NCBI RefSeq assembly: GCF_003945235.1
Contig: NZ_RSDW01000001.1
Coordinates: forward strand, 90,001 to 122,000
Origin: Edaphobacter aggregans
GTDB lineage: Bacteria > Acidobacteriota > Terriglobia > Terriglobales > Acidobacteriaceae
Direction of reading: 5' to 3'
DNA length: 32,000 nucleotides
Numbering within the stretch: position 1 is the stretch's first letter; the number at the start of each line of letters is the position of its first letter. Shown here in pieces: positions 5,965 through 25,718 of this stretch. The translations under genes were made by a program, and so were the position numbers. Under the pieces are notes generated by a model. It was not told the origin of the DNA and made no database searches. It saw only the letters and a list, made by a program, of their open reading frames with translations.

Positions 5965-5972
5965 GTCGCGCC

Positions 5973-8827: not shown

Positions 8828-11724
8828 GCAGTGCCTGCAACCTTCCCGAAGACGTCCTCTGCGGCTGCTGCGCGGGCCTCACGCAGGAAACGCCCCAGGC
8901 TATCACCAACCGGCCTGCGCTCTCCGCGGTCACCTACCGCGCTGGTACCTACTCGACCTTCCTCGGCAGCATGCTCGCGTCGCTCTCCGATCCTGGCCTG
9001 CCCGCGCTCTCCGCTCTCCGCACCCGCGATAGCTCCGACTTCACCATTGCTCTGCTCGATGCCTGGGCCGTCAGCCTCGACATCCTGACCTTTTACCAGG
9101 AGCGTTTCGCGAACGAAGCCTTCCTTCGCACCGCAGTCGACCAGCGCTCCGTCTTCGAACTTGCTCGACTCATCGGCTACGTCCCATCCCCTGGTGTCGC
9201 CGCCTCCGCCGTGATCGCGTTCACGCTTGCCACCGCCGCTGGCTCGCCCGACAACGTCCTCATCGCTGCCGGCACTCGTGTCCAAAGCATTCCCGGTCCC
9301 GGCCAGATGCCCCAGGTCTTCGAGACCTCCTCTGATCTCACCGCAGTCATCGCGCTCAATGCCCTTCCTGCGCAAACCGAGATCCCCTGGCAGCTCAACC
9401 CCGGCGACACAACCACCTGGATCACCGGTTCCTCCAACAACATCAACGTCGGCGACGCGCTCCTATTCATCGCTACCTCTTCCTCAGGCAGCCCCATCGC
9501 CAATGGTCCCGCCGACCTCCGCTTCGTCTCCCGGGTCCACATCGACCCTGTTTCCGGCAACACACAAGTCTGGTGGAACGCCGGCATCTCGAACACTGCC
9601 ACCATCGCAACCAGCGACGTCGCGATTTACATCTTCCGCAAAAAAGCTGCCCTCTTCGGCGCTCAAGCTATTAACCCCTTCCTTCTTCCCCCCGATACAC
9701 TTAAAAACATCCCCGGCCACCCACCCGCCCCTGCAACAACCTCGACGCTCCTATCCGCGATCCCCGCAGCCGAGCCCAAGGCGATCACCATCGCAGGCAC
9801 CATCAGCACCTCCCTCCTCGCCACCCGCTTCGTGAAGTCCCCGACCGACTGGATCTTCCAGCCCGTGACGAACGGTGTCATCAACCTCGACGCCGCCTAC
9901 ACTGGTCTCTCTCCCGCGGGCACCGCTCCCGCGCAGCTCCAGTGGCTTGTGCTCACCAACTCTAATGAAACCGCAGTCTTCCAGATCAGTAACGCTTCAG
10001 AATCCAACCCCAACCTCTACGCTCTTACCGCCAAAACCTCCCAGCTCACCCTGTCCACTCTCGCGGTTCTGGGCGGCAACCCCGGTTCGGGACTGAACGA
10101 CGTCCTGACGACCTTCTCCAACGACACTCGCATCACCACCGCCTACGTCAGCAGCACCCTCCTAACCCCCGCCACCCTCCCCATCACCCAGTGGACCGGC
10201 CCAACCACCTTCACTCTCGCCCCTGGCATGATCGTCCCCGTCCAGGGTGGCTCGGTCGCTGTGGTGGGCGGCCAGAACATCGCCGCCCACGGGCCAATCG
10301 GCATCTCCGGCAAGCGGGTGCGCCTGCAGGTCAGCTCTGGCAGCCTCGCCATCTTCGGCCCCGCCAACTCCTCCGGCGTTCTTCCTGTCTCGGACAACCA
10401 GATCTTCCTCGTCAACGTCTTTCCACCTACGACCGACTCCACCGGCCTCCTGCTCTGGTCAGTCAGCACACTCTCGGGCGTCTCCGGTACACTCTCCCTC
10501 GCCGCTAACAACCTGCAGCTTCTTCCCGCCGACAAAGCCGACCCGCTTGCAAGCGAAGCCTCCCTCGTCGATGTCGTTTCCGTCACCGGCGACATCACGA
10601 CGCTCAGCCTCCACTCTGCACTTTCCGGCATCTACGACGCCACCACCGTCACCGTCAACGCCAACGCTGTCGAGTCCACCCACGGCGAAACCGTACAGGA
10701 ACTCCTCGGTAACGGCGACGGAACCAACAGCGCCCTTCAGTTCACGCTCAAACAGTCGCCCCTCACCTATGTCACCGCCGCCACTGGCAACGGCACCCAA
10801 TCCACCTTGCAGGTCTGGGTCAACGGCCTCCAGTGGCACGAGGTCGCCAACCTCCTCACTGCCGGTCCCGCCGACCGCGTCTTCACCAGCCGTGTCAGCC
10901 CCGCGCTCAGCCGCATCGTCCAGTTCGGCGACGGCACCGACGGCGCCCGCACCCCCACCGGCCAGATGAATGTTCGTGCCGTTTACCGCAAGGGCATCGG
11001 CAGCGCTGGCATGGTCAACGCCAACCAGCTCTCCCAGCCCCTCGACCGCCCCCAGGGCCTCAAGTCCGTCACCAACCCCAGCCCCGCCTCCGGTGCCGCC
11101 GACCCCGCCACCGCCGCCGCCGCCCGTCAGAGCGCCCCCCTACCCACGCTCACCATCGGCCGCATTGTCTCGCTGGAGGACTACCAAAACTTCGCCCTCA
11201 ACTTCGCAGGCATCGCTAAGGCACTCGCCACCTGGACCTGGTTCGGCACCCGCCGCGGTGTCTTCCTCACCGTCGCTGGCGCCAACGGTGCAGTCCTCCA
11301 GGGCGACGACCCGGTCATCCTCAAGCTCATCGCCGCCATCCAGTCTGGCGGAAACCCCTTCATCCCTCTTCAGGTCGTCTCCTTTGTCCCTGTCCTCTTC
11401 CAGATCGGCGCCTCCGTTAAGGTCGACACCTACAACTACGACTCTGGCCAAGTGCTGGCCCAGGTTTGGTCGAACCTCCAGACCGCCTTCGCTTTCGCGC
11501 AACGCCAGCTCGCCCAGAACGTAGTCGCAGGCCAGATCGTCGAGCTCATCCAGAACACGCCCGGGGTCATCGCAACGCAACTCGCGTCCCTCAACCCCAG
11601 CGGTGAGCCCTCTTCCGGCTCACCCCCTGCCATCCTCTGTGCCTCCGGCCCACTTCCCCCGCAGGGCGCGCAGATGCTCCTGCTCGACCCCGCCTCCCAG
11701 GGCATGATCGGAGTCTGGTCATGA
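8824..11724 (+). CDS. second large baseplate wedge protein ('putative baseplate assembly protein', Afp12/gp7-position), 966 aa
   Basis: The start overlaps the upstream stop (ATGA). The N-terminal Cys cluster CNLPEDVLCGCC is followed by a J-like core: TYRAGTYSTFLGSMLASL...FTIALLDAWAVSLDILTFYQERFANEAFLRTAVDQRSVFELARLIGYVPSPGVAAS. It looks paralogous to the preceding gene. Confidence 0.75.
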   Translation: MSSACNLPEDVLCGCCAGLTQETPQAITNRPALSAVTYRAGTYSTFLGSMLASLSDPGLPALSALRTRDSSDFTIALLDAWAVSLDILTFYQERFANEAFLRTAVDQRSVFELARLIGYVPSPGVAASAVIAFTLATAAGSPDNVLIAAGTRVQSIPGPGQMPQVFETSSDLTAVIALNALPAQTEIPWQLNPGDTTTWITGSSNNINVGDALLFIATSSSGSPIANGPADLRFVSRVHIDPVSGNTQVWWNAGISNTATIATSDVAIYIFRKKAALFGAQAINPFLLPPDTLKNIPGHPPAPATTSTLLSAIPAAEPKAITIAGTISTSLLATRFVKSPTDWIFQPVTNGVINLDAAYTGLSPAGTAPAQLQWLVLTNSNETAVFQISNASESNPNLYALTAKTSQLTLSTLAVLGGNPGSGLNDVLTTFSNDTRITTAYVSSTLLTPATLPITQWTGPTTFTLAPGMIVPVQGGSVAVVGGQNIAAHGPIGISGKRVRLQVSSGSLAIFGPANSSGVLPVSDNQIFLVNVFPPTTDSTGLLLWSVSTLSGVSGTLSLAANNLQLLPADKADPLASEASLVDVVSVTGDITTLSLHSALSGIYDATTVTVNANAVESTHGETVQELLGNGDGTNSALQFTLKQSPLTYVTAATGNGTQSTLQVWVNGLQWHEVANLLTAGPADRVFTSRVSPALSRIVQFGDGTDGARTPTGQMNVRAVYRKGIGSAGMVNANQLSQPLDRPQGLKSVTNPSPASGAADPATAAAARQSAPLPTLTIGRIVSLEDYQNFALNFAGIAKALATWTWFGTRRGVFLTVAGANGAVLQGDDPVILKLIAAIQSGGNPFIPLQVVSFVPVLFQIGASVKVDTYNYDSGQVLAQVWSNLQTAFAFAQRQLAQNVVAGQIVELIQNTPGVIATQLASLNPSGEPSSGSPPAILCASGPLPPQGAQMLLLDPASQGMIGVWS

Positions 11725-14036
11725 GCCTCAACGCCGAACAACTCTTCGCTCTTCTCCCCTCGGTCTACCGCAACCGTGACGGTGACATCGGCGACCCGCT
11801 CCAGTCGCTCTACGCCGTGCTCGCCCAACAGCTCGGCATCGTCGAAGACAACATCCAGCAGCTCTACGACGACCAGTTCATAGAAACCTGCGCGCCCTGG
11901 GTGATCCCTTACATCGGCGACCTGATCGGTTACAACTCGATCTATGAGATCGCTACTACCTCCGACAGCCGCGCCGAAGTCGCCAACACCATCGGCTACC
12001 GCCGCCGCAAAGGTACCCTCCTTGCGCTCGAGCAGGTCGTCGCCGACGTTTCCGGCCGCACTACAGTAGCTGTCGAAGAGTTCCGCCGCCTCATCACTAC
12101 CGAAAGCATGCGGTTGGTCCGCCCCCGCCACGACTCCACCCTCACCCTCCGCCGCACCTCCGCGCTCGACCGCCTCAACACCGCCTTCGACCCCGCCAGC
12201 CGCACAATTGACGTACGCCGCATCGCCCCTCGTCTCCGTATTGCGCCCGACCCCGACCCCGCTCCGCTCGACATCAGTCTGCATGGCCCCGGCCGCTCCA
12301 ACATCCCGGACATCGCTATCCATCTCTGGCGCCTCAAGAGCCGCCCCGTCGTCAACGCTCCCGCTTTCCGGGTCGGAGCAGGGCGCTTCATGTTCAGCCC
12401 CCTCGGCGCAAACCTGCCGCTCTTCTCAGACCCACCCGCCCGCGCCTCCTTCAGCGGCCTCACCACCCGCATCGACGTCCCCGAACCCATCGACCGCATC
12501 GAGTTCGCCCGAAGCCTCCACCATCCTCACTCTCCCCAGTTCTACGGCTCCGCTGCCAGCATCCTCCTCATCGCCGACGGCGTTCCCATATCCGCCTCGC
12601 AGATCGTCTGCGCCAATCTCTCCGAACTCACCCCGGGCGGCCCCTGGTGCACCGTCCCCGCCGGCCGCATTGCCATCGATCCCGAACTCGGCCGCATCGC
12701 CTTCGCGCGCGATCTCCCCCTCCCACAATCTCTCCGCCTCAACTACTCCTTCGGCTCCGCAGCCGAAATCGGCGGTGGTCCCTACGACCGCTCTGCCTCG
12801 CTCACCGCTCTCAATCCCGCCCAGGCCTCCTTCTTCTCCCTTATAGGCACAACCACGCCATCACTCGAATCCGCCGTTGCCGAATGGAACATTCTCGTCG
12901 CCGCCACCCCTAACTTAACCGGCATAATCGTCCTTCCCGGCTTCGAGCAGTTTGCCATCGACCTAACCGGACTGGCCGCCATCCAGCTTCCTGCCGGTTC
13001 TAATCTCACCCTCGTCTCCGGCCAACCCGTCCCCTCCGGCGGCCTCTTCGACATCATCTGGAATCACTCCTGCGCCACGCTCACAGGCAGCATAGAAATC
13101 GTCGCCTCCGCCGTCCCCGTCCAGTCGACGGGCGAGGGACCAGCCGCCGGTCAGCTTCTTCTCAGCGGCCTCTGGCTCGCCGGTCAGATCTCAGTCTCCG
13201 GCGGCACCGCCACCGTCCAGGTCCTCGACTCCACCCTTGTTCCCGGCCTCGCCCTGACCCCCGCAGCCGATCCCGTCTCGCCCGGCGACCCTAGCATCTG
13301 TGTCACTGCCGTGGAAGTCAGTCTCACCGTCCTGCGCTCGATCACCGGCCCCATCGCCGCCGACTCGGGAGGCTCCACCCGCGTCTGCTCCAGCATTGTC
13401 GATGCTACCTCGCCCTGCTGCGTCGCCTACGCCGCGCCTGACCTCGCCTCTGCCGGCGCTGACCTCCACATTGAAGACAGCACCGTCGTCGGGAAAGTCC
13501 ACACCCGCACCATTCCGCTCGCCTCCAACACGATCTTTTTTGCCCGCCGTCCGTACCGCGACCCCTGGCCCGCCGCCGTCTGGGCCAGCCGCCGCCAAAC
13601 CGGCTGCGTTCGATTCTGCTGGCTCCCGTTCGACTCCATCACCCCGCGTCGCTATCTCTGCCTTCCACCCGACGCCGCGAGCGAAGCCTCTCTTACGCCC
13701 AAATTCATCAGCCTCCGATTCGGTCAGCCGGGCTACGCGTTGCTCAGCGGCGACGTCCCTCTCGCGATCTGGCATGGCGCCGACAACGGATCCCAGATCG
13801 GTGTGTATTACCAGATTCAGGAAACCGAGGCTGTTCGCAACGTCCAGCTCCGCGCCCCGGAGTACCTTCCCGTTGCGCTCGAGAGCGGCATCTTCCTCCA
13901 CCCCTCGCACCCCCTTCAGCGCGAGGGTCGGCTTCCCAGCATAGTTTATGGACGGCTCGTTCCGCCTCCGCAATGTTGTGACGACACAGACAATGACAGG
14001 CCGGCGTTCTACGGCATTGGCACTGCGCTGGTCTAA
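11721..14036 (+). CDS. phage tail protein, N-terminal P2 gpI-like domain, long C-terminal extension (771 aa)
   Basis: The start overlaps the upstream stop (ATGA). LLPSVYRNRD...DPLQSLYAVLAQQLGIVEDNIQQLYDDQFIETCAPWVIPYIGDLIGY resembles the gpI/tail-protein domain that follows the gpJ-like genes in P2-type baseplates. Confidence 0.7.
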   Translation: MSLNAEQLFALLPSVYRNRDGDIGDPLQSLYAVLAQQLGIVEDNIQQLYDDQFIETCAPWVIPYIGDLIGYNSIYEIATTSDSRAEVANTIGYRRRKGTLLALEQVVADVSGRTTVAVEEFRRLITTESMRLVRPRHDSTLTLRRTSALDRLNTAFDPASRTIDVRRIAPRLRIAPDPDPAPLDISLHGPGRSNIPDIAIHLWRLKSRPVVNAPAFRVGAGRFMFSPLGANLPLFSDPPARASFSGLTTRIDVPEPIDRIEFARSLHHPHSPQFYGSAASILLIADGVPISASQIVCANLSELTPGGPWCTVPAGRIAIDPELGRIAFARDLPLPQSLRLNYSFGSAAEIGGGPYDRSASLTALNPAQASFFSLIGTTTPSLESAVAEWNILVAATPNLTGIIVLPGFEQFAIDLTGLAAIQLPAGSNLTLVSGQPVPSGGLFDIIWNHSCATLTGSIEIVASAVPVQSTGEGPAAGQLLLSGLWLAGQISVSGGTATVQVLDSTLVPGLALTPAADPVSPGDPSICVTAVEVSLTVLRSITGPIAADSGGSTRVCSSIVDATSPCCVAYAAPDLASAGADLHIEDSTVVGKVHTRTIPLASNTIFFARRPYRDPWPAAVWASRRQTGCVRFCWLPFDSITPRRYLCLPPDAASEASLTPKFISLRFGQPGYALLSGDVPLAIWHGADNGSQIGVYYQIQETEAVRNVQLRAPEYLPVALESGIFLHPSHPLQREGRLPSIVYGRLVPPPQCCDDTDNDRPAFYGIGTALV

Positions 14037-14089
14037 GGGCCCGCAAGAACCGGGCAGAATTTTTTCATCAGGAATGGTCAGGGGGTCTT

Positions 14090-16561
14090 ATGAAAGGTGA
14101 CTTCAGTCGAATCCGGTTCAACCCAGGCAAGCAATACACCGCTGTGCTCGAGCAGCAGGGGCGCGTCTCCCTCGATGCTGACACTAACGAACAAGCCGCG
14201 ATCAACGACTATCTCCGCCGCACTGAAACCGTCGACGTAATCGGTGCCTTTGGCGCGCCCGAGCACGACCCCGGCTTCGCTATCACCGTCTCTGGCAACG
14301 AAATCCTCATCGGCACCGGCCGTTACTACGTCCAGGGCCTGGTCTGCGAGAACCGCGTTGACGCATTGCCTTATATCAGCCAGCCCTTCCTGCTAAATCC
14401 CTCCCCGACTGACTCCACCCTCCTCAACGAACTCGCCCAAGCCGACGGCAACAGCGCCATCCAGGTCTATCTGCAGGTCTGGCAGCGACTCGTCACCGCG
14501 CTCGACGACGCCTGTCTCCGCGAGCCCGCGCTCGGCCAGGCCGACACCACCGCGCGCTTGCAAACCGTCTGCCGCGTGGTGGCCAGCCTTGTTCCGCCCC
14601 CGCAGCCTTCGCAAATAGTCAACAAACTCCCCATCTCCAGCATCTTTCGCGAGCCCATCCTCGAGGCCCGGCAAAACCTTGCCGCGTTGATAAAAGAAAA
14701 CGCTGCCCTCCTCACCAGAGCAGTCACGACCCCGGCCGCTAATACTACGTCTGTCACCGCACTTGTGCCGGCTGTGGACTGCTGCACGTCGATGTACGGC
14801 CTTATCCCCACCCTCAGCACCGGCACCATGAGCGCCAGCACCGCCGCCGCCGGCTCCGACTGCTCCTGTCAGCCCATTCCCGCCGCAGGATACCAGGGCC
14901 TCGAAAACCAGCTCTATCGCATCGAGATCCACAACGGTGGCACCGAGGCCACGGCCTCCTTCAAGTGGTCGCGCGAAAACGGCTTCGTCGTCAGCGCCAT
15001 CACCACCTTTACCGGCAACACGATCGTCGTCGAATCACTCGGTCCTGACGCCAACCTCGGCTTCCAGGCCAACCAGTGGGTAGAAATCACCGACGACTCC
15101 GACCTCTTCGGTGAAACGCCCAACAGCCCCGGCCTCCTCTACCAGATCCAGAGCATCGACTTCACCGTCCCTTCCATCACCCTCACCTCCCCGGTCATCG
15201 GAATCAACACTGCGCTCAACGCCCGCGTACGCCGCTGGGACCAGACTGGCCCCTCCGCAACCAGCGCAGGTGTTCCCCTCTCCATTAGCACGCCGCTTAT
15301 CTTGGAAAACGGCATCGAGGTCACCTTCCGCGCCGGCACCTACCAGGCCGGTGACTACTGGACGGTCCCCGCCCGCACCGCCTCCGGCCAAATCGACTGG
15401 CCCCCCTGCGGCAGCAACGGCGACCTCTTTCAGCCGCCCCACTCCACGCTCGTCTACAACGCCCCGTTGGCCTGCATCCACTGGGACCCCAAGCAGCAGA
15501 AGGCGCTTGTCGAAGACTGCCGCCGCTTCTTCTTACCCCTCACAGAAATCAACGCTGCCGCTGCCTCCAATGCGCTTCATGTCACCGCCATGAACTGGTC
15601 CAACGACTCCCTCATGACCGCCGACGTATGGGTCGCCCAAGGCCTCACCGTCACGCTCGACGGAACTCCGACCAGCCCCATCTCGAACGGCGACTTCATC
15701 GTCACCCTCGAAACCATCTTCGATCCCTTCCAGGCGACGAACACCGGTATCGGTCTCGCCAGCCGCGCAATCAATCTGCAGCTCCCCTCTACTTACATCC
15801 GCACCTGTTTCGCCCTCGACTCGACCATAACGGTCAAAGGCCCATCGATCTCCTGGACCCTACCCTATCTTCAAGCGGCACCACTCCAGATCCTTACCGT
15901 CAACGCCATCAACACCGGCCTGCTGTTCGGTGCCGCGTTCGGTCAGTATGCTCGCGTCAGGGTCCGGCTCCTCGGCAATACCATCTCCTCCGGAGTAGCC
16001 AATGGCCAGCTGTTTCTTGATGGCCAATGCCTCGGCCAGCCCATAACCAACGCGGATGGCACCACCCGCATCGACCTGCAGCTTCCTTCCAGCACCGGCG
16101 AGCGATACAGCGACTTCGAGTCCTGGTTCTACCTCGCTCCTACCCTGCTCATCGCAGACCTCACCGTCGCTTATCCCGCCCTCTTCGCCATTGCACCGAA
16201 CGGCAACCTCATCGGGGTAGCAGCAACTGGGCCGGTCACCGGCTTCGAAAACGGCGTCAACCCTTTCGCGACGATCACTGCCAACTACCGCGCCCTCGTC
16301 GATACTCAGGTCACTCTCTCCCTCCTGGACGCCAACGGCCAGGCTTCGCAATGGGCCAATATCGACTCCCCCGTAACCATCCACGCCGGCGAAGTCTTCA
16401 CCAACGCCGCCATCAACGTCACCGGAAATCCAATAACCAACGGGCAATTTACCACCGTCACCATCACCGTGCAGGCCAGCATCACCACCGCGATAGGCCC
16501 GCTTCCAGCCACTCCGGTCACCTTCACCCTGACCGGCGGCTCCTACGAACAAATCAACTAG
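14090..16561 (+). CDS. large CIS-associated protein in the tail-fibre position (recalled as DUF6519-like), 823 aa
   Basis: The N-terminus MKGDFSRIRFNPGKQYTAVLEQQGRVSLDADTNEQ and the motif NQLYRIEIHNGG...SFKWSRENGFV match my memory of a conserved family found after CIS baseplate genes. The match is unverified. The C-terminal half is beta-rich with no catalytic motif. Confidence 0.6.
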   Translation: MKGDFSRIRFNPGKQYTAVLEQQGRVSLDADTNEQAAINDYLRRTETVDVIGAFGAPEHDPGFAITVSGNEILIGTGRYYVQGLVCENRVDALPYISQPFLLNPSPTDSTLLNELAQADGNSAIQVYLQVWQRLVTALDDACLREPALGQADTTARLQTVCRVVASLVPPPQPSQIVNKLPISSIFREPILEARQNLAALIKENAALLTRAVTTPAANTTSVTALVPAVDCCTSMYGLIPTLSTGTMSASTAAAGSDCSCQPIPAAGYQGLENQLYRIEIHNGGTEATASFKWSRENGFVVSAITTFTGNTIVVESLGPDANLGFQANQWVEITDDSDLFGETPNSPGLLYQIQSIDFTVPSITLTSPVIGINTALNARVRRWDQTGPSATSAGVPLSISTPLILENGIEVTFRAGTYQAGDYWTVPARTASGQIDWPPCGSNGDLFQPPHSTLVYNAPLACIHWDPKQQKALVEDCRRFFLPLTEINAAAASNALHVTAMNWSNDSLMTADVWVAQGLTVTLDGTPTSPISNGDFIVTLETIFDPFQATNTGIGLASRAINLQLPSTYIRTCFALDSTITVKGPSISWTLPYLQAAPLQILTVNAINTGLLFGAAFGQYARVRVRLLGNTISSGVANGQLFLDGQCLGQPITNADGTTRIDLQLPSSTGERYSDFESWFYLAPTLLIADLTVAYPALFAIAPNGNLIGVAATGPVTGFENGVNPFATITANYRALVDTQVTLSLLDANGQASQWANIDSPVTIHAGEVFTNAAINVTGNPITNGQFTTVTITVQASITTAIGPLPATPVTFTLTGGSYEQIN

Positions 16562-16581: not shown

Positions 16582-17502
16582 ATGCGCGCTGTCTGGTCCT
16601 TCTGGAGCAAACCCTTCCAGGGCGAAAAGGGCCGCTCCTGGCAAAGCCCGCTGCATCACTTGCTCGCCTGGGGTCTATCCATGCGCCTTGCGCGCAAATA
16701 CTTCCCAGAAACTGCCCTCGTCACCGACACGCCCGGCAAAGCGCTCCTGGTCGACGCTCTCGGCCTCCCCTTCACCCACGTCTCCACGGAGCTCGACGAC
16801 TACCGCCGCTGCGACCCTGGCTGGTGGTCGCTCAGCAAAGTAGTCGCCTACCGTGCCCAGCAACAGCCCTTCATCCACCTCGATACCGACGTCTTCCTTT
16901 GGAAGCCCCTGCCCGCCGCCATGCTCGCCGCATCGGTCTTCGCCCAGTGTCCTGAAGACCATCCCCCGCTCGACACCTATTGGGGTCCCGATGAAGTCGA
17001 GCGCGCCTTCACCCAGCACAACCTCACCGTGCCCGTCGAGTGGGAGTGGGTGCGCTCGCGCTCCCCATACGGCTTCCGCGAGGCCAACTGCGGCATCATG
17101 GGCGCAAACCGCGTCGACTTCATTCAGTACTTCGCCAGCCTCTCGCTCGATCTCATGACCAACCCCGCCAACGCTCCTGCCTGGGCCGAGTTTCCCTATC
17201 TCAGCGGCTACATGATGCTCACGGAGCAATTCCTTCTCAACGCCTGCTTCGAATTCCATCGCTCCCACCCCCAGTCGCCCTTCCGCGGCATGCACATGCG
17301 CTACCTCTTCCCCTCCTTCGGCGAAGCCTACAACCACGAAGCTGCCTCCCGCGTCGGCTTCACCCACCTCCTCGGCGACGCTAAGCGCGACCCCGCCATC
17401 GCCCGTCGCCTTGAACAACGCACGGAACAGGAAGACGGCAGCTTCTACCGCCACTGTGTGCAGCTGAGCCGCCACAACCCTTTCTCCCGCCACGCTCTCT
17501 GA
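16582..17502 (+). CDS. hypothetical protein with DxD motif, GT-A glycosyltransferase-like (recalled as DUF6734-like), 306 aa
   Basis: The listed ORF 16027..17502 overlaps the previous gene. The real start is probably the ATG at 16582, with GGAG 11 nt upstream, 20 nt after the upstream stop. N-terminus is MRAVWSFWSKP. PFIHLDTDVFLWKPLP carries a DxD-type motif. The family assignment is from memory only. Confidence 0.55.
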   Translation: MRAVWSFWSKPFQGEKGRSWQSPLHHLLAWGLSMRLARKYFPETALVTDTPGKALLVDALGLPFTHVSTELDDYRRCDPGWWSLSKVVAYRAQQQPFIHLDTDVFLWKPLPAAMLAASVFAQCPEDHPPLDTYWGPDEVERAFTQHNLTVPVEWEWVRSRSPYGFREANCGIMGANRVDFIQYFASLSLDLMTNPANAPAWAEFPYLSGYMMLTEQFLLNACFEFHRSHPQSPFRGMHMRYLFPSFGEAYNHEAASRVGFTHLLGDAKRDPAIARRLEQRTEQEDGSFYRHCVQLSRHNPFSRHAL

Positions 17503-17513
17503 GGACAGACCAG

Positions 17514-19538
17514 ATGTTCGCCGCCAAGATCTCGCGGTCGCCTCTAAAAAGTGACAAGCCTTCGGATCGCCGGTTTGGGCAGCTTGGCCTGGTTCCGTCT
17601 AAGCAGCTATCCCCACTTGTTCCAGATGAACCCACGCGCAACCCTCGGCTAGCGGCTGGCGGGCCCATTCTCCCAGGTTCGTCCTCACCCCTCGCCGCTC
17701 CACTGCTTAAGCTGTCACCGCTGCGGCCAAACCTGATCCGTCGGAAGCTGGAAGTTGGCGCTACGAATGACCCGCTCGAAGCAGACGCCGACCGCGTCGC
17801 AGACGAAGTGCTCGGCATGCCTCACCCGGGCAACTCGGCCGGGTCGCATCCCAATTGTGCTGCAGGCCAATGCGATTGCGCCAAATGTAGCGCGAAGCAC
17901 CATGAAAATGGCAGGCTCACACGCAAAGCGCCAAGCGGCACACCAGGCTTGGCCGCCATTTCCGCCCCTCCGCTTGTTCAGCGGGTTCTGAGTCAACCCG
18001 GCAAACCACTGGATCACAGCGCCCGTACGTTCTTTGAGCCCCGTTTCGGCTACGATTTCTCCTCCGTTCGGATTCACAGCGGAGACGAAGCAGCCGAGTC
18101 AGCCAGTTCCATCGGCGCGTTGGCCTTCACCTCCGGCCATCACATCGTTTTCGGCCGTGACCAATACTCGCCCGCCAGTTCAGCCGGATCGCGCCTGCTC
18201 GCACATGAACTCGCCCACGTCACCCAGGATTGCGGAACGATTCGCCGCCAGCCTGAACCTCACCGCAACGCGCAGGTTGCCTGCGTGGTCCGACTCGGAG
18301 GCTGCATCCAGACTCGCGATGCTGGTATTCCTTCCCCTGACGACATCACCCGTTACAACGCCGAATGCCGCAGTAAGTCCCAATACACCGGTGCCGATAT
18401 AACACCCACCGACCAGGAGTGCGCCAATCCTCCGAAGGAAGAGCTCTCAACCGGAGAAAAGATTCTGCTCGGCGCTTTCATCTTCCTCGGTGCTGCTGCA
18501 GCTGCAGCTGTCATCATTGTGGCCGGCGAGGTGATCATACCCATTGTCGTTTCCAGCGTAGTAGAAGCGGGCACGACGGCGTGGGTCTTCTATCTCGCAA
18601 ATGCCATCGCCGTGAACGAAATCGGCGTCTTCGCGATAGGTTTGGTCCTGGCCTGTGAAGGCAACATCGTAGGATTAGCCAAAGCCATGGTAGACGACCC
18701 CGCTCAGGCAGCCGTTCTGCTCGCGCAGATTTATATCCTCCACGTCCAGATCTCGATCGCAAATGGCCCACCCCGCAACGCCACCGTGCCCGCTAAACTG
18801 CTGCCCCCCGACGAACAGACCGAACCCAATACGATCAAGTTCAAAACTGCCGGTCCACCCCAGTTCGAAGACAACGAAGGCACGACTGGACCATCTCCCT
18901 CAAAGGCAGGCACCACAACGGCCCCTCGGCCATCTGCCCAAAATCCAGCAGTGGCGGCTGATCAAGCCGAGTTCGACTCCCTCGAACAGCGCATCCAAAA
19001 CTACCGCTCCAATCCCAAAACTCCGGGACGCGTCGACGTTCCCGCGACGCCCAGGGTTCCCGGTGATCCCAAAGCCCCAAACACTCCAGTGCAGGGTGGA
19101 ACCGTTGCGGTAGCCAAAACAAACGTCACTGGATTGGGGCAAAAATACTACGGTGGAGCATCCCCACAAGCTCTGCCGCCAGGGTACAAAGGGCAGCCCG
19201 GCACATCTGGCGGTCAAGTTCTTACTCCGACCAACCCGCTCTCCACAGATCACGCCGAACAAGTTGCCCTGAACAGCCTTCATGGAGACTTAAGCGCTCT
19301 GCTCAAGGACGCGACGCCCGCGCAACGCGCTGCTCTCCTCCAGGGCAAAACCGTCTGGGTTCTCGTCGAGCAGGAACCCTGCTCTTCCTGTGCATCCGGC
19401 GTCGGCACTCAGGCCTCACCTGGCGTTCTGAAGCAGTTCAGCGATCTCTACCCAGAGCTGAAAATCGAGATCAGAAATCTGAGAACCTCCAGCCGCATCG
19501 TGTTGGGCGGCGGCTCCGCTACCGTGAAAAAGCCATAG
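17514..19538 (+). CDS. putative CIS cargo/toxin: DUF4157 (HExxH) N-domain, hydrophobic helix block and C-terminal deaminase-like domain, 674 aa
   Basis: GAGGA lies 8 nt upstream, and the gap to the previous gene is 11 nt. DUF4157 hallmarks are RRKLEVGATNDPLEADADRVADEV, GKPLDHSARTFFEPRFGYDFSSVRIHSGDEAAESASSIGALAFTSGHHIVFG and LLAHELAHVTQD (HExxH at nt 18204-18218). The hydrophobic block spans residues ~317-416 (nt 18462-18761). The C-terminus has TDHAEQVAL (nt 19251-19259) and VWVLVEQEPCSSC (Cys codons 19380-19382 and 19389-19391). Confidence 0.75.
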   Translation: MFAAKISRSPLKSDKPSDRRFGQLGLVPSKQLSPLVPDEPTRNPRLAAGGPILPGSSSPLAAPLLKLSPLRPNLIRRKLEVGATNDPLEADADRVADEVLGMPHPGNSAGSHPNCAAGQCDCAKCSAKHHENGRLTRKAPSGTPGLAAISAPPLVQRVLSQPGKPLDHSARTFFEPRFGYDFSSVRIHSGDEAAESASSIGALAFTSGHHIVFGRDQYSPASSAGSRLLAHELAHVTQDCGTIRRQPEPHRNAQVACVVRLGGCIQTRDAGIPSPDDITRYNAECRSKSQYTGADITPTDQECANPPKEELSTGEKILLGAFIFLGAAAAAAVIIVAGEVIIPIVVSSVVEAGTTAWVFYLANAIAVNEIGVFAIGLVLACEGNIVGLAKAMVDDPAQAAVLLAQIYILHVQISIANGPPRNATVPAKLLPPDEQTEPNTIKFKTAGPPQFEDNEGTTGPSPSKAGTTTAPRPSAQNPAVAADQAEFDSLEQRIQNYRSNPKTPGRVDVPATPRVPGDPKAPNTPVQGGTVAVAKTNVTGLGQKYYGGASPQALPPGYKGQPGTSGGQVLTPTNPLSTDHAEQVALNSLHGDLSALLKDATPAQRAALLQGKTVWVLVEQEPCSSCASGVGTQASPGVLKQFSDLYPELKIEIRNLRTSSRIVLGGGSATVKKP

Positions 19539-19653: not shown

Positions 19654-21225
19654 TTATCTGCACCCAGCTTTACCCGGTTTCCCCTGATGGAAGGTAAACG
19701 TAATGCCGGTCGGAGAAAACGTCAGCGCCGACGATCCGCCAGGCGTGACACCTGCCTGCACGCCGGTGCTGAACCCAACTCCTAACCGACCGCCGTCGCA
19801 GAAGGTATGCACCGTGGCCTCCACCGAAGCGCCCAGACCAAACTGGAACTGCGTCGGCTGTGGGACCGAAGGCCCTCCCGCTCTCGGCGCAACGCTGCCT
19901 GCCTGCACCCCCGCTGTCGCCGATCCCAAATTAGCCGTAAATCTCGGATCCTCATCAGTGCCCACTTGAACCGTTGCCAGCGACCCGCCGGCCGCAATCG
20001 AAGCCTGCTGTACATTGCTCGGCACACCCTTGTTGTTCTCCGCCGCGGGTTGGGGAAATCCTTCGGTCTGCGCCTGGATCGTCGGCGCGGTCAGCAGCGA
20101 TAGCGTAACGTCGCCCGAGGGGCCATGGCTGCCAGCCCATTTGAACTGTTTCGCCGACGCATCCCACTGCGCTGCCGCCTGGTCGACCACCACGCCCACC
20201 CCAGACCCACGCACATGCTGCGAGTGCGGCGAAACAACCGTGTTCTGCGGGTCGTAACCCACCAGCGTTTGGTGAGTCACATCCGGTCCCTTGTCGTCCG
20301 CCCCACCGGAACCCGCCTTGGGCTTCGACAGGTCGTCCCGGAAGTCCACCGCGCCTCCACTCGTCGGCGCAGGCTGGTCATGCGCACTCCCGGCGTCTGA
20401 TGCCTGCGCACGGAGAAACGAATCAATAACAAACTGCCGAAAACTCTGCTGTTGAAATCCCGGTAGCCACAGGCTGCGCGCCGTGTCTTCCACTAGCCGC
20501 GGCGAGGGGCGCTCGCCCAGTCGCAATGGAGGTAACGTTGGCGCAGGTGCAAGCACCCCAGGCAACAGAGATCGCCGCAAAGCCTCCAGATCCGCCGGCA
20601 GCGGAAACAACGTCACCGGCGTTAGCGCTGCGGGAGTCCGCAGCCGCGTGCTGGGCTGTGGGTCATCCGTGCCCTGCCGTTGCACCAATGCTTGCGAAGC
20701 GGCCTGCGGTCCCGCGTTTCCAGCCAGCACCGCCTGCGCATTTCGCTCCAACGGATGGTCGCGACCTGAAAGCTGCACCTCGCCATCGCCCGCGCTTGCC
20801 CCGCGTTGCTGTGCGACATGCACCAACTCATGCGCGAGCAAAGCCTGGCCCGCGGGCGTGCCGGGCTGGTATCGGTGCCCACCAAAAACCACGTGGTCCT
20901 TCCATGTAAAGGCAGCCGCCCCCGCAGCCTCTGCCGCTGCAGCAGCCTCCCTGTCCGTATGAACCCTTACGTGCCCTAGGTCGCCAAAATGCGGTTCCAG
21001 TCGTTGCCGAACGTCCGGTTGGAGCGGCGATCCCGGCGACCGCCAACCCTCCCGCACAGTTTCCGGAACACGGAGGCCGGCGTCGCTGAACCCTGAACTG
21101 CGCTTCGGTTGCGGGGCAAACGCCCTCAGACTGCCTGGACCGGCTGTCTCTCGCCAGATCCGCCGTGCAAACGCCGGCGCACCCTGCGACCTCATCCTTT
21201 CAGGCCTGGAAACGAGTGCGCCCAT
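19654..21225 (-). CDS. DUF4157 (HExxH) domain protein with uncharacterised Gly/Ser/Thr/Gln/Val-rich C-terminal region, 523 aa
   Basis: GGAGG lies 6 nt upstream of the ATG at 21225. GSPLQPDVRQRLEPHFGDLGHVRVHTDREAAAAAEAAGAAAFTWKDHVVFGGHRYQPGTPAGQALLAHELVHVAQQ is a canonical DUF4157 core (HELVH at nt 20818-20832). I recognise no domain in the C-terminal ~330 aa. Confidence 0.75.
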   Translation of the reverse strand: MGALVSRPERMRSQGAPAFARRIWRETAGPGSLRAFAPQPKRSSGFSDAGLRVPETVREGWRSPGSPLQPDVRQRLEPHFGDLGHVRVHTDREAAAAAEAAGAAAFTWKDHVVFGGHRYQPGTPAGQALLAHELVHVAQQRGASAGDGEVQLSGRDHPLERNAQAVLAGNAGPQAASQALVQRQGTDDPQPSTRLRTPAALTPVTLFPLPADLEALRRSLLPGVLAPAPTLPPLRLGERPSPRLVEDTARSLWLPGFQQQSFRQFVIDSFLRAQASDAGSAHDQPAPTSGGAVDFRDDLSKPKAGSGGADDKGPDVTHQTLVGYDPQNTVVSPHSQHVRGSGVGVVVDQAAAQWDASAKQFKWAGSHGPSGDVTLSLLTAPTIQAQTEGFPQPAAENNKGVPSNVQQASIAAGGSLATVQVGTDEDPRFTANLGSATAGVQAGSVAPRAGGPSVPQPTQFQFGLGASVEATVHTFCDGGRLGVGFSTGVQAGVTPGGSSALTFSPTGITFTFHQGKPGKAGCR

Positions 21226-21331: not shown

Positions 21332-24300
21332 TCAACGCACCGGCACCGTCTCTGGATCGACCGCTGCGCTCGCCCCCACGGCCGACACTCGCGCCAAAGC
21401 AATCTTCGCCATCGGATACACGTCGCTCCCAAGTACGAAATCAGCTCCCCGATGCGCCAGCACAGTTTGAAAATCAGCAACGGCCAGCGGACCCTTATCG
21501 ATCCCCACATGTGCCAGACCCCGCAAATAAGGCGTCAGCGACACCTGGTCATACTGCTCAACTCGAGTCAGCGCATTCAAAGCACCAGCTGGGTCCTTCA
21601 CGCCAAGCGCCACGGCTGCCTCCATGTCCGGAACGTAATATTCCATCACCGCCGTATTCTGCGGATAGCTTTGGAGCAAGTCGGTCATCATCTTCTCTGC
21701 GTACACACGATCGCCACACAGAGCCGATGCCATCCCCGCGTTGAAGCTCGCGATTGGCCCACTGGCCAGTTCCTTCGTCTCACGAACCATCGTAAGAGCT
21801 TCGCCGCAACTTTCGGCGAGTGCACGATCCAGTGCACCCTGCGCCAGCATGTACGCTCTCGTCCCTGTGGTATCTGGAAGCCCTCCCGTCGTCTTCCACA
21901 CCGCTGCTCCTGCGACCATCTGTTCCGTATTGTCCAGATAGAGCCCGTAATCCACGAGTCGCCCATAGCTTGTCGCTTCGCCTCGATGCAATGCACGCGC
22001 CTCAACCGCGACAATATCGTCTTTGCCCGCGAGATAAGCCGCTGCCAGCGAACTCCCACCCGACGCAACTCCCAACCGCTGGCTCTGACTCTCCAAATGC
22101 AATGCGTCATCGGAACGGTCCAATCCAATCATCGCCAACTCCGCTTCGCGATACGCATCCGCCCGATAAGGATCCTCCCCATATGCCTGTTGCGCAGCCA
22201 GCAATGCCTCTACGAAATGTCCTTCGGCACGAAGAACCCGTGCCAAACCCACCATCCCTTCACTATCGTTTGGATAGAGCTCCGCATACTGCCGAATAGA
22301 CGTCGCTGCGCGGCCATAGTCCCCACTGGTGTTCATCTCATAAGAGAACTCAGCCAGTCGTCTCACACTATCGCTCGCCTGCCTGGCCGCATCCTGTGCC
22401 AAACTGGCCGCACTCGCCGCAGCTACCTCCGCCTTCTCTTCCCGATACAACCAGGCCAGCTGCATTTGGGCCTGGGCAAATCTCGCGTCAAGACCCACCG
22501 CTTGCTGATACGCCATAAGCGCGTCCGCTGTTCGCCCTTGTCGCATCGCGGTCTCGCCCAGAGCATAAGCATGAAGCGCAGCGATATTAACTGTCGCCTC
22601 ATTCTCCAGCGAAACGCTCGTCTCTTCGATCGTTCCAGTAGCCTCACCCATCTCCGCTCGCATCGCGCGAGCAAGCTTTCCGATCGCGGCAGGAATCTCT
22701 GCCGGTGTATCTGCCGTCTCCGCAACACTGGCAAGCTTATCGTTCGACTCGGTACTCAACACATCCACGCTGATGACGTAAGGTTCAGTTCCTCCACCCC
22801 GGACCTCTCCATACAGATAAGCCTTCGCCCCCGTCATCTGCGCTACCTTCCGAGCCGACACATTTGCTGCAGCTTCCCCATCTTCAGCTTCTATCTGCCG
22901 TGCTCCCGCCTGATACGCATCACCCCCACGTACCTTCAACGCCTGGGACTGCCTCAGTTCAATCTCCAGGCCCTCCAATACCGCACCATCCAACATCGAA
23001 TCGTTTGTCTTATTCTGGACAACCGTAAGCAGCAGGGCCTCGTCAGGACTCAGCACCGCAGGCCGGAATCGTCCACTCCGCACTAGCAGAAAAGCCCCAA
23101 CCACAACCGCGGCAATCACCACCGCAGCAAGCGCCACCTTCAGTATGATTCTGCCTCCCGACCCCGACAGCTCGGGAGCTACTTGCTCCTCCACTTCAAC
23201 CTGTTCGACGTGAGTTTCATCAACACGAACCTTGGTCTGAATCACTCCTGACTGGCTCTTCGCTGTAACAGCGACGCGCTCCTCGGCCAGTACCGTGCCA
23301 GAGTCGGCATCGGCCATTCCCTGCGAAGAGTTTGAAGCACCCACCTTCCAAAGCCGCGTGCCGTCGTCACTAGGAACCGGCATGCCCCCACTTTCTGTTG
23401 CCATTGCGGCTGTCCTTGCAGGCAGACGCAACGGACGAATCACTATGTCGCCCGAACTCGACCCACTTCCATCGGATAGAGCCGCATATTCCCCGGAATC
23501 TCTACGCATCGGGCCCCTAGGCCGAGCTGTCGGCTCCGGCGCTGGTACCAGAGGAACCGCTCCGGCCCCTCTTTTCAGCCACCCTCCCTTGCCGAGTTTC
23601 TCCGCAATCTTCTCCAACGCCTCCCGCAACTGCTCTGCCGTCTGAAAGCGCTCCCTCTTGTCCTTCAACAAGCACCGAAGAATCAGACGCTCCAGTTCAC
23701 GCGGGATCGACTCATTCCAACTCCGCACCGGCTCGGGATCGCGCTCCAGCAGTTGCACAAACAACAGGGCGCTCGTCGTTCCCCTGAAAGGAACCTGCCG
23801 CGTCGCCATCTCATACATCACTACGCCCAGCGAGAACAGATCTGACCGAGCATCCAGTGCCTCCCCCCTGGCCTGCTCCGGCGACATGTAAGCCAGCGTC
23901 CCCACCGTCGACCCGGCAACCGTCAAGTCCAACGACCGTGACGCCCATCCCCCATGCTTCTCCAGGTTGATCTTCGCCAGCCCAAAGTCCAACACCTTGG
24001 CCTGTCTTGAGCCATTCGACTTGTTCACTAGAAAGATATTCGCCGGCTTGATATCCCGGTGAACGATTCCCTTCCCATGCGCCATCGTCAACGCATCAGC
24101 CACCTCCTGGGAGTACCGTACGATCTCTTCCGCCGAAAGCGCCTTACGCGCAATCTTGTCCTTTAGCGTCTCCCCTTCCATCAACTCCATCACGAGGTAG
24201 GGATCGCCATCCCGCTCACCGATATCGAAGATCGTGCAGATATTCGGATGGCTCAAGCCTGATGCCGTCCGCGCCTCTTGCAGAAAACGCTCCCGCATCC

Positions 24301-24451
24301 CCGGCATCTTGTAGTCATTATGCAGCAGCTTTACCGCCACCTCGCGATGCAGCCGCCCGTCCCACGCACGAAAGACCAGGCCCATACCTCCACCGCCCAG
24401 TTTGCCCAGGATCTCGTACGGCCCCAATCGTTGGCCTATCTCCGGACTCAT
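21332..24451 (-). CDS. transmembrane Ser/Thr protein kinase with extracytoplasmic TPR-like sensor region
   Basis: Kinase motifs are the G-loop GKLGGGGMGLVF, VAVKLL, HRDIKPANIF, DFGLAK and YMSPEQ. One TM helix (IILKVALAAVVIAAVVVGAFLLV) is followed by ~570 aa with TPR-like repeats. The ORF opens at GTG 24508, but ATG 24451 (MSPEIGQRLGPYEI) is preferred. Confidence 0.85.
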   Translation of the reverse strand: MSPEIGQRLGPYEILGKLGGGGMGLVFRAWDGRLHREVAVKLLHNDYKMPGMRERFLQEARTASGLSHPNICTIFDIGERDGDPYLVMELMEGETLKDKIARKALSAEEIVRYSQEVADALTMAHGKGIVHRDIKPANIFLVNKSNGSRQAKVLDFGLAKINLEKHGGWASRSLDLTVAGSTVGTLAYMSPEQARGEALDARSDLFSLGVVMYEMATRQVPFRGTTSALLFVQLLERDPEPVRSWNESIPRELERLILRCLLKDKRERFQTAEQLREALEKIAEKLGKGGWLKRGAGAVPLVPAPEPTARPRGPMRRDSGEYAALSDGSGSSSGDIVIRPLRLPARTAAMATESGGMPVPSDDGTRLWKVGASNSSQGMADADSGTVLAEERVAVTAKSQSGVIQTKVRVDETHVEQVEVEEQVAPELSGSGGRIILKVALAAVVIAAVVVGAFLLVRSGRFRPAVLSPDEALLLTVVQNKTNDSMLDGAVLEGLEIELRQSQALKVRGGDAYQAGARQIEAEDGEAAANVSARKVAQMTGAKAYLYGEVRGGGTEPYVISVDVLSTESNDKLASVAETADTPAEIPAAIGKLARAMRAEMGEATGTIEETSVSLENEATVNIAALHAYALGETAMRQGRTADALMAYQQAVGLDARFAQAQMQLAWLYREEKAEVAAASAASLAQDAARQASDSVRRLAEFSYEMNTSGDYGRAATSIRQYAELYPNDSEGMVGLARVLRAEGHFVEALLAAQQAYGEDPYRADAYREAELAMIGLDRSDDALHLESQSQRLGVASGGSSLAAAYLAGKDDIVAVEARALHRGEATSYGRLVDYGLYLDNTEQMVAGAAVWKTTGGLPDTTGTRAYMLAQGALDRALAESCGEALTMVRETKELASGPIASFNAGMASALCGDRVYAEKMMTDLLQSYPQNTAVMEYYVPDMEAAVALGVKDPAGALNALTRVEQYDQVSLTPYLRGLAHVGIDKGPLAVADFQTVLAHRGADFVLGSDVYPMAKIALARVSAVGASAAVDPETVPVR

Positions 24452-24740
24452 GCCTCTCGATTGCCTTCCATCTTGATCTCTCAAAGACGCCACGTATGTT
24501 GCGATCACTGCGCAATCATAGCCACGGCATCTTTCTGTTCTCTTCTTTACTTCTGACCCGTTCCGCGCATCAACAACCCGTACCTCCCAAATTGAAACGA
24601 CTTAAGATGCGTCACCTCGCCTCTATAACGCGACACCTCGAATCAACGATTTACCAACATGGTATGCACCCCATCTCCTCCGGTCTCTACAACCATTGAC
24701 GTAGAAAGACATTCCAGTTCCGTGCCACACCAACCCCTCC

Positions 24741-25669: not shown

Positions 25670-25675
25670 CATCGT

Positions 25676-25700
25676 GCGGTGCGGACATCCTCCGCACCGC
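25676..25700 (+). terminator. GC-rich hairpin (10-bp perfect stem, 5-nt loop) between the micro-ORF and the sigma-factor gene; possible terminator or attenuator
   Basis: GCGGTGCGGA (25676-25685), loop CATCC, then TCCGCACCGC (25691-25700), followed by the pyrimidine/T-rich tcctcttc. It begins 7 nt after the micro-ORF stop. Confidence 0.45.
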
Positions 25701-25718
25701 TCCTCTTCAAAGGATTCC

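Follow-up and report, generated by a model that had tools for sequence, protein, structure and literature searches.

Probable effector gene and its product

The window analysed here, a 32,000-nucleotide stretch of the genome of the soil acidobacterium Edaphobacter aggregans (contig NZ_RSDW01000001.1, positions 90,001 to 122,000), carries the plus-strand operon of a contractile injection system (CIS) that begins at position 497, and the subject of this report is the last gene of that operon, referred to below as the effector gene. In the open reading frame (ORF) list it occupies 17514..19538 on the plus strand, starts with ATG, and encodes 674 aa. The product is identical to E. aggregans WP_125483475.1 / RSL14636.1 (cluster member P0157), for which the public annotation is "DUF4157 domain-containing protein" and nothing more. 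The protein has a cargo-type layout, in which a putatively disordered, basic N-terminal region and a PF13699 domain are followed by a variable payload consisting of a hydrophobic block, a linker, and a probable deaminase-fold domain (Table 1). It is a probable injected toxin of a known class, and what is new in it is modest, probably a divergent, unannotated clade of deaminase-like domains.

The motifs that had been pointed out in an earlier note on this DNA, made from the sequence alone, were all recovered at their residues, including His580, Glu582, Cys623, and Cys626. The stop codon of the upstream DUF6734 gene lies at 17500-17502, which leaves a gap of 11 nt to the effector ATG; this gap and the GAGGA site, with which the same note had placed the gene in the operon, were both found as described. 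A scan for promoters and terminators around the effector gene gave no signal exceeding the shuffled background. Selection was measured against a 97%-identical ortholog located on a metagenome contig (L001). The ratio of nonsynonymous to synonymous substitution rates (dN/dS) was 0.22 for the whole gene, and the effector gene is under purifying selection.

Table 1. Features of the CIS operon, the effector gene, and the adjoining convergent gene, in window coordinates
Feature	Residues	Position	Strand	Basis or remark
AAA+ ATPase with winged-helix domain		497-2584	+	Pfam, PHROGs
Tube		2900-3502	+	Pfam, PHROGs
410-aa ORF		3780-5012	+	
Spike OB domain		5139-5642	+	Pfam, PHROGs
gp25		5784-6338	+	Pfam, PHROGs
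Baseplate wedge proteins		6335-8827 and 8824-11724	+	Pfam, PHROGs
771-aa ORF		11721-14036	+	
DUF6519		14090-16561	+	Pfam, PHROGs
DUF6734		16582-17502	+	Pfam, PHROGs
GAGGA ribosome-binding site		17501..17505	+	8 nt before ATG; overlaps TGA of upstream DUF6734 gene (read from sequence)
N-terminal region of effector	1-84	17514..17765	+	Pro/Ser-rich, basic; composition
Conserved motif NDPLEADADRVADEV	85-99	17766..17810	+	Precedes PF13699 domain
PF13699 domain (DUF4157, eCIS_core, PVC-metallopeptidase)	165-239	18006..18230	+	Pfam match
Cys-rich segment, four Cys	246-305	18249..18428	+	Common to relative P0029, E 1.9e-21
Hydrophobic block, three to four transmembrane-like helices	315-419	18456..18770	+	Hydropathy
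Pro/Thr-rich flexible linker	420-479	18771..18950	+	Composition, relaxed dN/dS
Deaminase-like domain	480-674	18951..19535	+	AlphaFold2 models, PDB fold matches
H580-A581-E582, predicted zinc ligand and catalytic Glu, start of helix 2	580-582	19251..19259	+	Invariant; aligns with ADAT2 HAE
P622-C623-S-S-C626, predicted zinc-binding PCxxC	622-626	19377..19391	+	Aligns with ADAT2 EPCimC and PF14424 PCxxC region
Second PF13699 gene, 523 aa, convergent		19654..21225	-	Pfam PF13699 E 3.6e-26

Motifs, conservation, and predicted fold of the C-terminal domain

The deaminase-like domain is about 195 aa long, with a core of about 150 aa. A C-terminal domain of about 140 aa had been proposed in the earlier note; the domain is present, and it is longer than proposed, with the addition of an N-terminal helix (residues 481-498) that is kept in relatives and confidently modelled. 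The sequence TDHAEQVAL corresponds to residues 578-586 and VWVLVEQEPCSSC to residues 614-626, and the PCxxC extends to CSSCAS (623-628), a CxxCxS motif in which the Ser varies across the family. An alignment of 58 divergent full-length relatives leaves G548, S550, H580, A581, E582, C623, and C626 as its only invariant columns, and H580 is nearly invariant in the 33-sequence domain alignment. Because the HAE and PCxxC residues are invariant and the gene is under purifying selection, the arrangement of these motifs is more than chance. Zinc would be bound by His580, Cys623, and Cys626, with Glu582 as the predicted proton shuttle.

Searches of Pfam with the single sequence gave three sub-threshold deaminase matches, to MafB19-deam (17 bits, cut-off 27), dCMP_cyt_deam_1 (14 bits, cut-off 25), and PF14424 (13 bits, cut-off 29.6), all of which centre on the HAE and PCxxC motifs. 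When the 33-sequence family profile was compared with the PDB, the best match was human ADAT2, with an E-value of 0.16 that is not significant; the alignment is in register, with HAE paired with HAE and EPCssC with EPCimC, and the spacer between the motifs is similarly long. A thioredoxin-like protein was also among the weak profile matches, through its CxxC. The PDB search with a 4-sequence profile gave no match. In a single-domain search of the PDB, T4 dCMP deaminase (E 0.19) was aligned with its catalytic HAE paired with LHGD at H591, a register that was rejected because H591 is not kept in relatives.

Structure models of the domain were built with AlphaFold2, and the predicted local distance difference test (pLDDT) score was 88.4 for residues 480-674 and 92.9 for a trimmed domain with a deeper alignment. 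The first model was less confident at residues 510-539, where ten-residue pLDDT means were 52-77 and residues 520-525 fell below 50. The modelled elements run in the order N-terminal helix, two strands, 31-residue ordered insert, HAE helix, extra helix, strand ending in PC, short PCxxC helix, another helix, beta-hairpin, and one more strand. The HAE opens its helix and the PCxxC stands at the junction of strand 3 with the following helix, as in the deaminase fold. Between model strands 128-133 and 139-143 there is a turn of 5 residues and no helix, so that the two strands form a C-terminal hairpin; the domain thus models as a deaminase core in the C-terminal-hairpin division as defined by Iyer et al. 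2011 (PMC3239186).

Foldseek comparison of the first model with the PDB placed deaminases (DddA, APOBEC3, APOBEC2) in all of the top 20 positions, with AID and ADAR2 lower, and the best match was 8e5d_A at an E-value of 0.037. For the trimmed model the top 32 of 350,542 chains were all of the deaminase fold (best E 0.11) and included Rib2, APOBEC1/3A/3G/3H, DddA, a DYW domain, and ADAT2/3. Trimming raised the best TM-score to about 0.5, and no E-value became significant. In the BFVD viral library the top two matches were dCMP-type deaminases (best E 4.4e-3). From the agreement of the sequence and model searches, the C-terminal domain is very probably a zinc domain of the cytidine-deaminase fold. 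Support for the fold comes from separate weak searches that agree with the catalytic residues in register, and not from any single score. The cytidine-deaminase-fold reading of the earlier note is accordingly retained as the best one, on the invariant motifs, the ADAT2 register, the models, and the fold matches; of the structure model and fold search for which that note had called, the outcome is that the deaminase fold runs throughout the top matches and that statistical significance was not reached.

Assignment of the deaminase-like domain to a clade

PF14424, which represents the BURPS668_1122 clade, is the Pfam family most often matched by close relatives of the window domain. The window protein itself scores 13.0-17.2 bits, below the gathering score of 29.6. 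Matches to PF14424 were found in 12 of 14 close relatives, one of which (P0007, 38.4 bits) passes the cut-off over model positions 109-144 only, and in 4 of the 58 relatives at E <1e-3. The window domain resembles this clade in its modelled C-terminal hairpin, in the insert between strand 2 and helix 2, and in a CxxCxS in helix 3. It differs in helix 2, where the clade has DxE (RxxDxExK) and the window sequence DHAEQVAL has HAE with no Lys after the Glu. Members of PF14424 were reported to deaminate cytidine in single-stranded DNA in a base-editor reporter (bioRxiv 10.1101/2023.05.21.541555). The score against MafB19-like deaminases (PF14437) was 17.0-20.3 bits and likewise stayed below the gathering score (27).

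Kinship with the SCP1.201/DddA deaminases (PF14428), which the earlier note had put forward, was rejected at the sequence level. The domain lacks the [HD]xEx[KQ] motif (HAEQV here), strand 3 ends in VEQE with no Asn, Pfam gave no PF14428 match for the window protein, and hhalign of the family profile against the DddA toxin domain (a sequence entered by hand) returned a probability of 0.7%. The likeness to DddA is that of a compact bacterial toxin deaminase of a contractile machine, and a DddA structure (8e5d_A) was the top PDB match of the first model. DddA is a type VI secretion system effector with a cognate immunity protein, DddI, unlike the window effector. As for the SsdA-type deaminases named in the same note, no solved SsdA structure occurs among the fold matches listed. 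The OTT_1508 clade was also rejected as a candidate; it belongs to the Helix-4 division and has GxxK before its CxxC, whereas the window domain has a modelled hairpin, LVEQEP, and no GxxK.

No NCBIfam model matches the domain or the protein. On these sequence comparisons the domain fits none of PF14424, DddA/SCP1.201, MafB19, and OTT_1508, and is thus assigned to a clade without a curated model. A word-indexed search recovered 3 relatives of the domain by single sequence and 13 by profile; an exhaustive profile search recovered 340 representatives (50% identity) at E <= 1e-3, with 25 at E <= 1e-30. The deaminase-like clade is common in soil and sediment metagenomes and goes undetected at the Pfam gathering thresholds and in NCBIfam.

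N-terminal region, PF13699 domain, hydrophobic block, and linker

Residues 1-84 contain 13 Pro, carry a net charge of +9, and consist to 64% of disorder-promoting residues (composition only). Across residues 1-160 dN/dS against the L001 ortholog is 0.55, a relaxed value. By analogy with the N-terminal regions of Cgo1 and Cgo2, residues 1-84 are a candidate loading sequence. The region of about residues 62-130 is common to several PF13699 relatives.

The PF13699 match (E 2.7e-29, 101.6 bits) is well above the gathering cut-off of 22, and dN/dS across the domain is 0.04. The motif FEPRFGYDFSSVRIHSG corresponds to residues 174-190 and AHELAHVTQD to residues 230-239, and the HExxH of the domain is intact (H231, E232, and H235; nt 18204-18218). 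A metallopeptidase role for this domain, or an autoproteolytic release of the toxin, is a prediction made in PMC3239186 and PMC3482391. Besides the Cys-rich segment that follows the domain, a second Cys cluster, CAAGQCDCAKC, lies N-terminal to it at residues 114-124 (17853-17885), and the clusters flanking PF13699 may provide extra metal or disulfide sites.

The hydrophobic block was called by Kyte-Doolittle hydropathy with a 19-residue window and a threshold of >1.2, which marks about residues 311-419, in agreement with the mid-block of about 100 aa described in the earlier note. Compared with the L001 ortholog, the block has 0 nonsynonymous and 5 synonymous changes and is constrained. A block is also carried by 46 of the 63 relatives that have both PF13699 and the deaminase-like domain, and its position varies among them, either between the two domains, as here, or after the deaminase-like domain. 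Many relatives (P0037, P0050, P0054; L009, L011, L012) have this permuted order of PF13699, deaminase-like domain at about 310-450, and block, so that the deaminase-like domain is internal and not C-terminal; the C-terminus of P0050 is a CFI-box-CTERM domain (NCBIfam NF041770, E 1.9e-24).

Six relatives (P0040, P0029, P0031, P0126, P0087, P0027) share a hydrophobic block resembling SitA5_escort. In P0040, residues 654-775 match the NCBIfam model SitA5_escort (NF050093), a region of a polymorphic toxin family, at E 6.5e-22, which is below the curated cut-off. Their sequence similarity hints that the SitA5_escort-like blocks of the relatives are shared delivery modules. P0029, one of the six, is collinear with the window protein from end to end (32% identity, E 8e-92). 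A phmmer search with the hydrophobic block of the window protein found one weak relative only.

The linker described in the earlier note as Pro/Thr-rich was likewise recovered, residues 421-520 containing 17 Pro and 75% disorder-promoting residues with a dN/dS of 0.57.

CIS operon, neighbouring genes, and distribution of relatives

The candidacy of the protein as CIS cargo, raised in the earlier note, is plausible, the gene being the last of the operon and encoding PF13699, and relatives being found inside the CIS clusters of other phyla. In L002, an Anaerolineae metagenome-assembled genome (MAG), the CIS gene set is syntenic with that of the window and the effector homologue lies between the AAA+ ATPase and tube genes; in the window only 315 non-coding bases (2585-2899) separate these two genes. 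Relatives within or beside CIS clusters were found in the Anaerolineae MAG, in a Gemmatimonadales MAG, and on metagenome contigs, where the AAA gene is often followed by the toxin gene and then the tube gene, and CIS genes also flank the relatives in L003, L009/L010, L011, and L012/L013. Other PF13699 genes are frequent neighbours at the related loci. No clear tail-fibre gene was identified within the window (Pfam, PHROGs).

PF13699 is carried by 41 of the 58 relatives of the deaminase-like domain, PT-HINT by four, and RHS by one, these last two being polymorphic-toxin modules that stand where PF13699 would be; since the domain is carried by PF13699, PT-HINT, or RHS modules, it acts as a mobile toxin cassette. 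Eight relatives without PF13699 gave almost no domains in the Pfam scan. No immunity gene was identified at the locus, and no downstream ORF is conserved across the 14 related loci examined. The 115 bp between the effector stop and the stop of the convergent gene leave no room for one.

The convergent gene encodes a second PF13699 protein with an intact HExxH (AHELVHVAQQ) and a C-terminal region of about 340 aa that is rich in Gly, Ala, and Gln, for which Pfam, PHROGs, and NCBIfam gave no match. It adjoins the target gene in L004 too, at 95% identity, and is probably a second effector. Near the effector pair, 21332-24508 (-) encodes a Ser/Thr protein kinase of 1058 aa that contains TPR repeats and an LpoB-like stretch below threshold (E 1e-4), and a sigma factor of the extracytoplasmic function (ECF) type is encoded at 25674-26252. 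On the other side of the effector gene, the product of the DUF6734 gene contains HLDTDVF, a DxD-like motif reminiscent of nucleotide-sugar transferases. In the close strains L001 and L004 this gene occurs together with the effector; it was not found at other related loci. Kinases and regulators often flank the loci of extracellular contractile injection systems (eCIS), according to Geller et al. 2021 (PMC8213781).

Relation to known systems

Deaminase toxins fused behind a metallopeptidase of the Photorhabdus virulence cassette (PVC) type, with PVC-type delivery, were described by Iyer 2011 (PMC3239186) and Zhang 2012 (PMC3482391). Zhang 2012 names deaminases of nucleic acids as one kind of C-terminal domain in PVC-metallopeptidase toxins, and Iyer 2011 states that the PVC-adjacent deaminase toxins have no immunity proteins with them at all. 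As in the window protein, these toxins have an N-terminal HExxH PF13699 domain, a variable C-terminal toxin, and no adjacent immunity gene, and they cluster with a CDC48-like AAA+ ATPase and with genes for phage baseplate or VgrG-like proteins; they were reported in a fibrobacteres/acidobacteria grouping, in chloroflexi, and in other phyla. The lack of an immunity gene at the present loci matches both accounts of PVC-type toxins. The difference lies in the linked deaminase clade, which is OTT_1508 of the Helix-4 division, whereas the window domain models in the hairpin division and is without GxxK. Both studies are computational only, and their available text mentions no intervening hydrophobic block.

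In Geller et al. 2021, DUF4157 is a core marker of eCIS with an odds ratio of 2614, and EAT11 (AmyniDRAFT_7433 of Amycolatopsis nigrescens), which combines DUF4157 with a deaminase, kills E. coli and yeast (PMC8213781). EAT11 was compared by description only; it is like the window protein in its N-terminal DUF4157, predicted C-terminal deaminase, and eCIS association, and differs in coming from another phylum, with toxicity reported and, in the available text, neither deaminase activity nor particle loading. The same paper counts the YwqJ, XOO_2897, and DYW deaminase families of Pfam as toxin domains associated with eCIS, with strong enrichment for YwqJ-deaminase; the single occurrence of DYW_deaminase was not significant after correction (q = 0.07). 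Danov et al. 2024 found DUF4157 in 51.5% of the toxins predicted for eCIS, and in the majority of these it had no second annotated domain beside it. The genus table of Geller et al. has 4 Edaphobacter genomes with no eCIS hit, on a reading of its unlabelled columns, and the window locus is probably absent from that catalogue. The earlier note had presented a deaminase delivered by a contractile particle as a new cargo class; that claim falls, as such cargo was predicted in 2011-2012 (PMC3239186, PMC3482391) and EAT11 was found toxic in 2021 (PMC8213781).

The closest characterised analogue of the hydrophobic block is in Tme (BN159_7576) of Streptomyces davawensis, a CIS-associated protein that carries DUF4157 and several predicted transmembrane helices, has disordered linkers, and ends in an EndA-like nuclease (PMC11126660). 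Tme is membrane-associated, and its authors suggest that DUF4157 and/or the transmembrane helices raise its toxicity (PMC11126660). It shares with the window protein the combination of DUF4157, hydrophobic region, disordered linkers, and C-terminal nucleic-acid enzyme. It differs in its length of >2,200 aa, its tape-measure homology and coiled coils, and its position as the largest ORF directly upstream of the baseplate genes; the window effector has 674 aa, is exceeded by five operon ORFs (695-966 aa), sits after the baseplate genes, and has no tape-measure match in Pfam. The three-part combination that the earlier note could not match to any characterised protein is therefore not unique, given the 46 of 63 relatives that carry the block and the same layout in Tme with a nuclease. 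Effectors of the Sle1 type that end in a cytidine-deaminase-like domain also occur naturally (PMC13277306).

Cgo1 and Cgo2 of AlgoCIS are located in the tube lumen; their loading, which an AAA+ ATPase mediates, requires the N-terminal regions (bioRxiv 10.64898/2026.05.27.728243). As described (Xu et al. 2022, cited in PMC11297309), they run from a disordered N-terminal region through DUF4157 to a C-terminal domain that varies, and the window protein resembles them in this plan, with an N-terminal region that is putatively disordered. They differ in carrying C-terminal domains other than deaminases, in being described without a hydrophobic block, and in having N-terminal regions that are system-specific and dissimilar in sequence.

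Proposed function and alternative explanations

The reading that we favour, and consider fairly probable, is that of a CIS-loaded effector with an N-terminal region loaded by the AAA+ ATPase, a hydrophobic block that mediates insertion into, or passage across, a membrane, a zinc deaminase that attacks cytosines, probably in DNA, and a PF13699 domain that is accessory or acts in processing. Its starting points are the architecture, conserved catalytic residues, weak but agreeing fold matches, the CIS association, and purifying selection; from there we infer that the protein is loaded, what the block does, that proteolysis releases the payload, and which substrate and target organism are involved. 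The N-terminal region would direct the protein into the tube lumen, with loading by the AAA+ ATPase of the operon, and contraction would eject it into or onto a target cell. The hydrophobic block would then insert in the membrane and help the payload to reach the cytoplasm, and the PF13699 peptidase may process or release that payload. The deaminase would turn cytosine to uracil in the target nucleic acid, most probably DNA, leading to mutagenesis and lethal damage. Cytosine in DNA is the best guess for the substrate, and only a guess, because PF14424 members deaminate cytosine in single-stranded DNA; single-stranded DNA is the best single candidate. That no immunity gene was identified points to targets other than kin or to lysis of the producer.

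Several points weigh against this reading. No single comparison with a known deaminase is significant (PDB fold E 0.037, BFVD 4.4e-3, profile 0.16), TM-scores are only 0.3-0.5 with no fold match at E <1e-3, and the PF14424 similarity is limited to some 36 positions at the PCxxC, in its strand and helix (about 109-144 of the Pfam model). DUF4157 is not needed for AlgoCIS loading (bioRxiv 10.64898/2026.05.27.728243), and its HExxH is not needed for Cgo1 toxicity. The three to four transmembrane-like helices could mean a protein of the producer membrane and not a lumen cargo, and homology of the block to the SitA5_escort-like blocks is not demonstrable, the score against a profile of the six relatives being 3.9 bits. 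No sheath gene was identified within the window, and the CIS may be of the extracellular or of the cytoplasmic or membrane-anchored type. Substrate and target are pure inference.

A stronger version of the proposal, which we regard as possible and somewhat unlikely, is that the domain founds an uncurated, CIS-specialised clade of deaminase toxins whose catalysis differs from that of characterised clades, for example in a substrate or sequence context determined by the 31-residue insert and the extra helix, and that the block is a self-contained translocation module by which an injected enzyme would pass the cytoplasmic membrane of the target.

Among the alternatives, the best to survive is a CIS effector with a true deaminase fold whose substrate is RNA (tRNA, rRNA, or mRNA, at cytosine or adenine) or free nucleotides, which would poison translation or nucleotide pools and not mutate the genome. 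It agrees with the identity of the best in-register sequence match, ADAT2 being a tRNA adenosine deaminase, with the presence of Rib2, ADAT2/3, ADAR2, a DYW RNA-editing domain (TMt 0.50), and dCMP-type deaminases among the structural matches, and with the proposal of nucleic-acid targets, RNA included, in Iyer 2011 (PMC3239186). The nearest Pfam clade, PF14424, nevertheless deaminates cytidine in single-stranded DNA, DddA and APOBEC3 enzymes dominate the structural matches, and the comparisons are too imprecise to assign a substrate; we consider this alternative unlikely.

Less likely again, and improbable in our view, is that the protein is not injected and that the block anchors it in the membrane of the producer, where it would act in cis as a CIS-associated factor that takes part in differentiation, the stress response, or the regulated death of the cell, in the way proposed for the Streptomyces cytoplasmic CIS and the effectors Tme and Sle1, or would serve as a membrane-attachment factor. 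Purifying selection on three to four transmembrane-like helices would fit such a role, as would the membrane association of Tme in its producer and its effect on the colony biology of that producer (PMC11126660), and a deaminase-like domain fused to Sle1 altered the producer's own sporulation (PMC13277306). There is also no immunity gene, and with no sheath or clear tail-fibre gene identified in the window an extracellular mode is not established. The layout of the window protein, however, equals that of cargos inside the tube lumen of a true extracellular CIS (Cgo1/Cgo2), a few relatives of the domain are carried on PT-HINT or RHS polymorphic toxins, which are exported weapons, and an AAA+ unfoldase would have difficulty in loading a protein that is constitutively inserted in a membrane.

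That the C-terminal domain is no deaminase, its HAE and PCxxC coming from an unrelated zinc-binding or redox domain and the resemblance being convergent or an artefact, is very improbable: the insignificant comparisons with TM-scores at or below 0.5, the empty hhalign comparison with the DddA toxin domain (sequence entered by hand), and the thioredoxin-like profile match through CxxC speak for it, but five independent weak signals converge on one fold and keep the catalytic motifs in register, deaminase-fold proteins fill the top 32 places among 350,542 PDB chains, the model places HAE at a helix start and PCxxC at a strand-to-helix junction, and the sole invariant residues are the catalytic tetrad, A581, and the G-x-S motif.

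For the favoured reading, an injected deaminase effector, the protein is a worthwhile experimental candidate and holds no conceptual surprise. Of the published eCIS deaminase cargos compared here, none is reported in the available text to deaminate or to be loaded, EAT11 having been reported for toxicity only. Work on the clade would reveal which nucleic acid such cargos attack and whether the recurrent hydrophobic block translocates; translocation by the block, if true, bears on the engineering of particles for enzyme delivery, and a small deaminase might extend the base-editing toolbox. Should the uncurated clade and the translocation module both prove true, they would provide a new compact base-editor scaffold together with a portable delivery module.

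Nucleotide composition

The G+C content at third codon positions (GC3) of the two PF13699 genes (17514-19538 and 19654-21225) is 0.63 and 0.67, compared with 0.78-0.81 in the genes at 6335-16561. The magnitude of the third-position skew is 0.32 and 0.36 in the two PF13699 genes, and the skew is -0.56 to -0.67 in the eCIS genes at 6335-16561; the first 160 codons of the 17514-19538 gene are nearly skew-free (-0.06). The lower GC3 and weaker skew of the effector genes suggest more recent acquisition or cassette exchange.

Over the whole window (1-32000) the GC skew is -0.256 (C 12339, G 7302), a strand asymmetry far above ordinary replication skew. Calculated on the coding strand of each gene, the skew at third codon positions ranges from -0.25 to -0.67 for genes on the plus strand and from +0.36 to +0.70 for those on the minus strand, and the intergenic skew in the window is -0.08 to -0.45. 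Because the third-position and intergenic skews agree, the plus strand is C-rich at near-neutral sites regardless of gene orientation.

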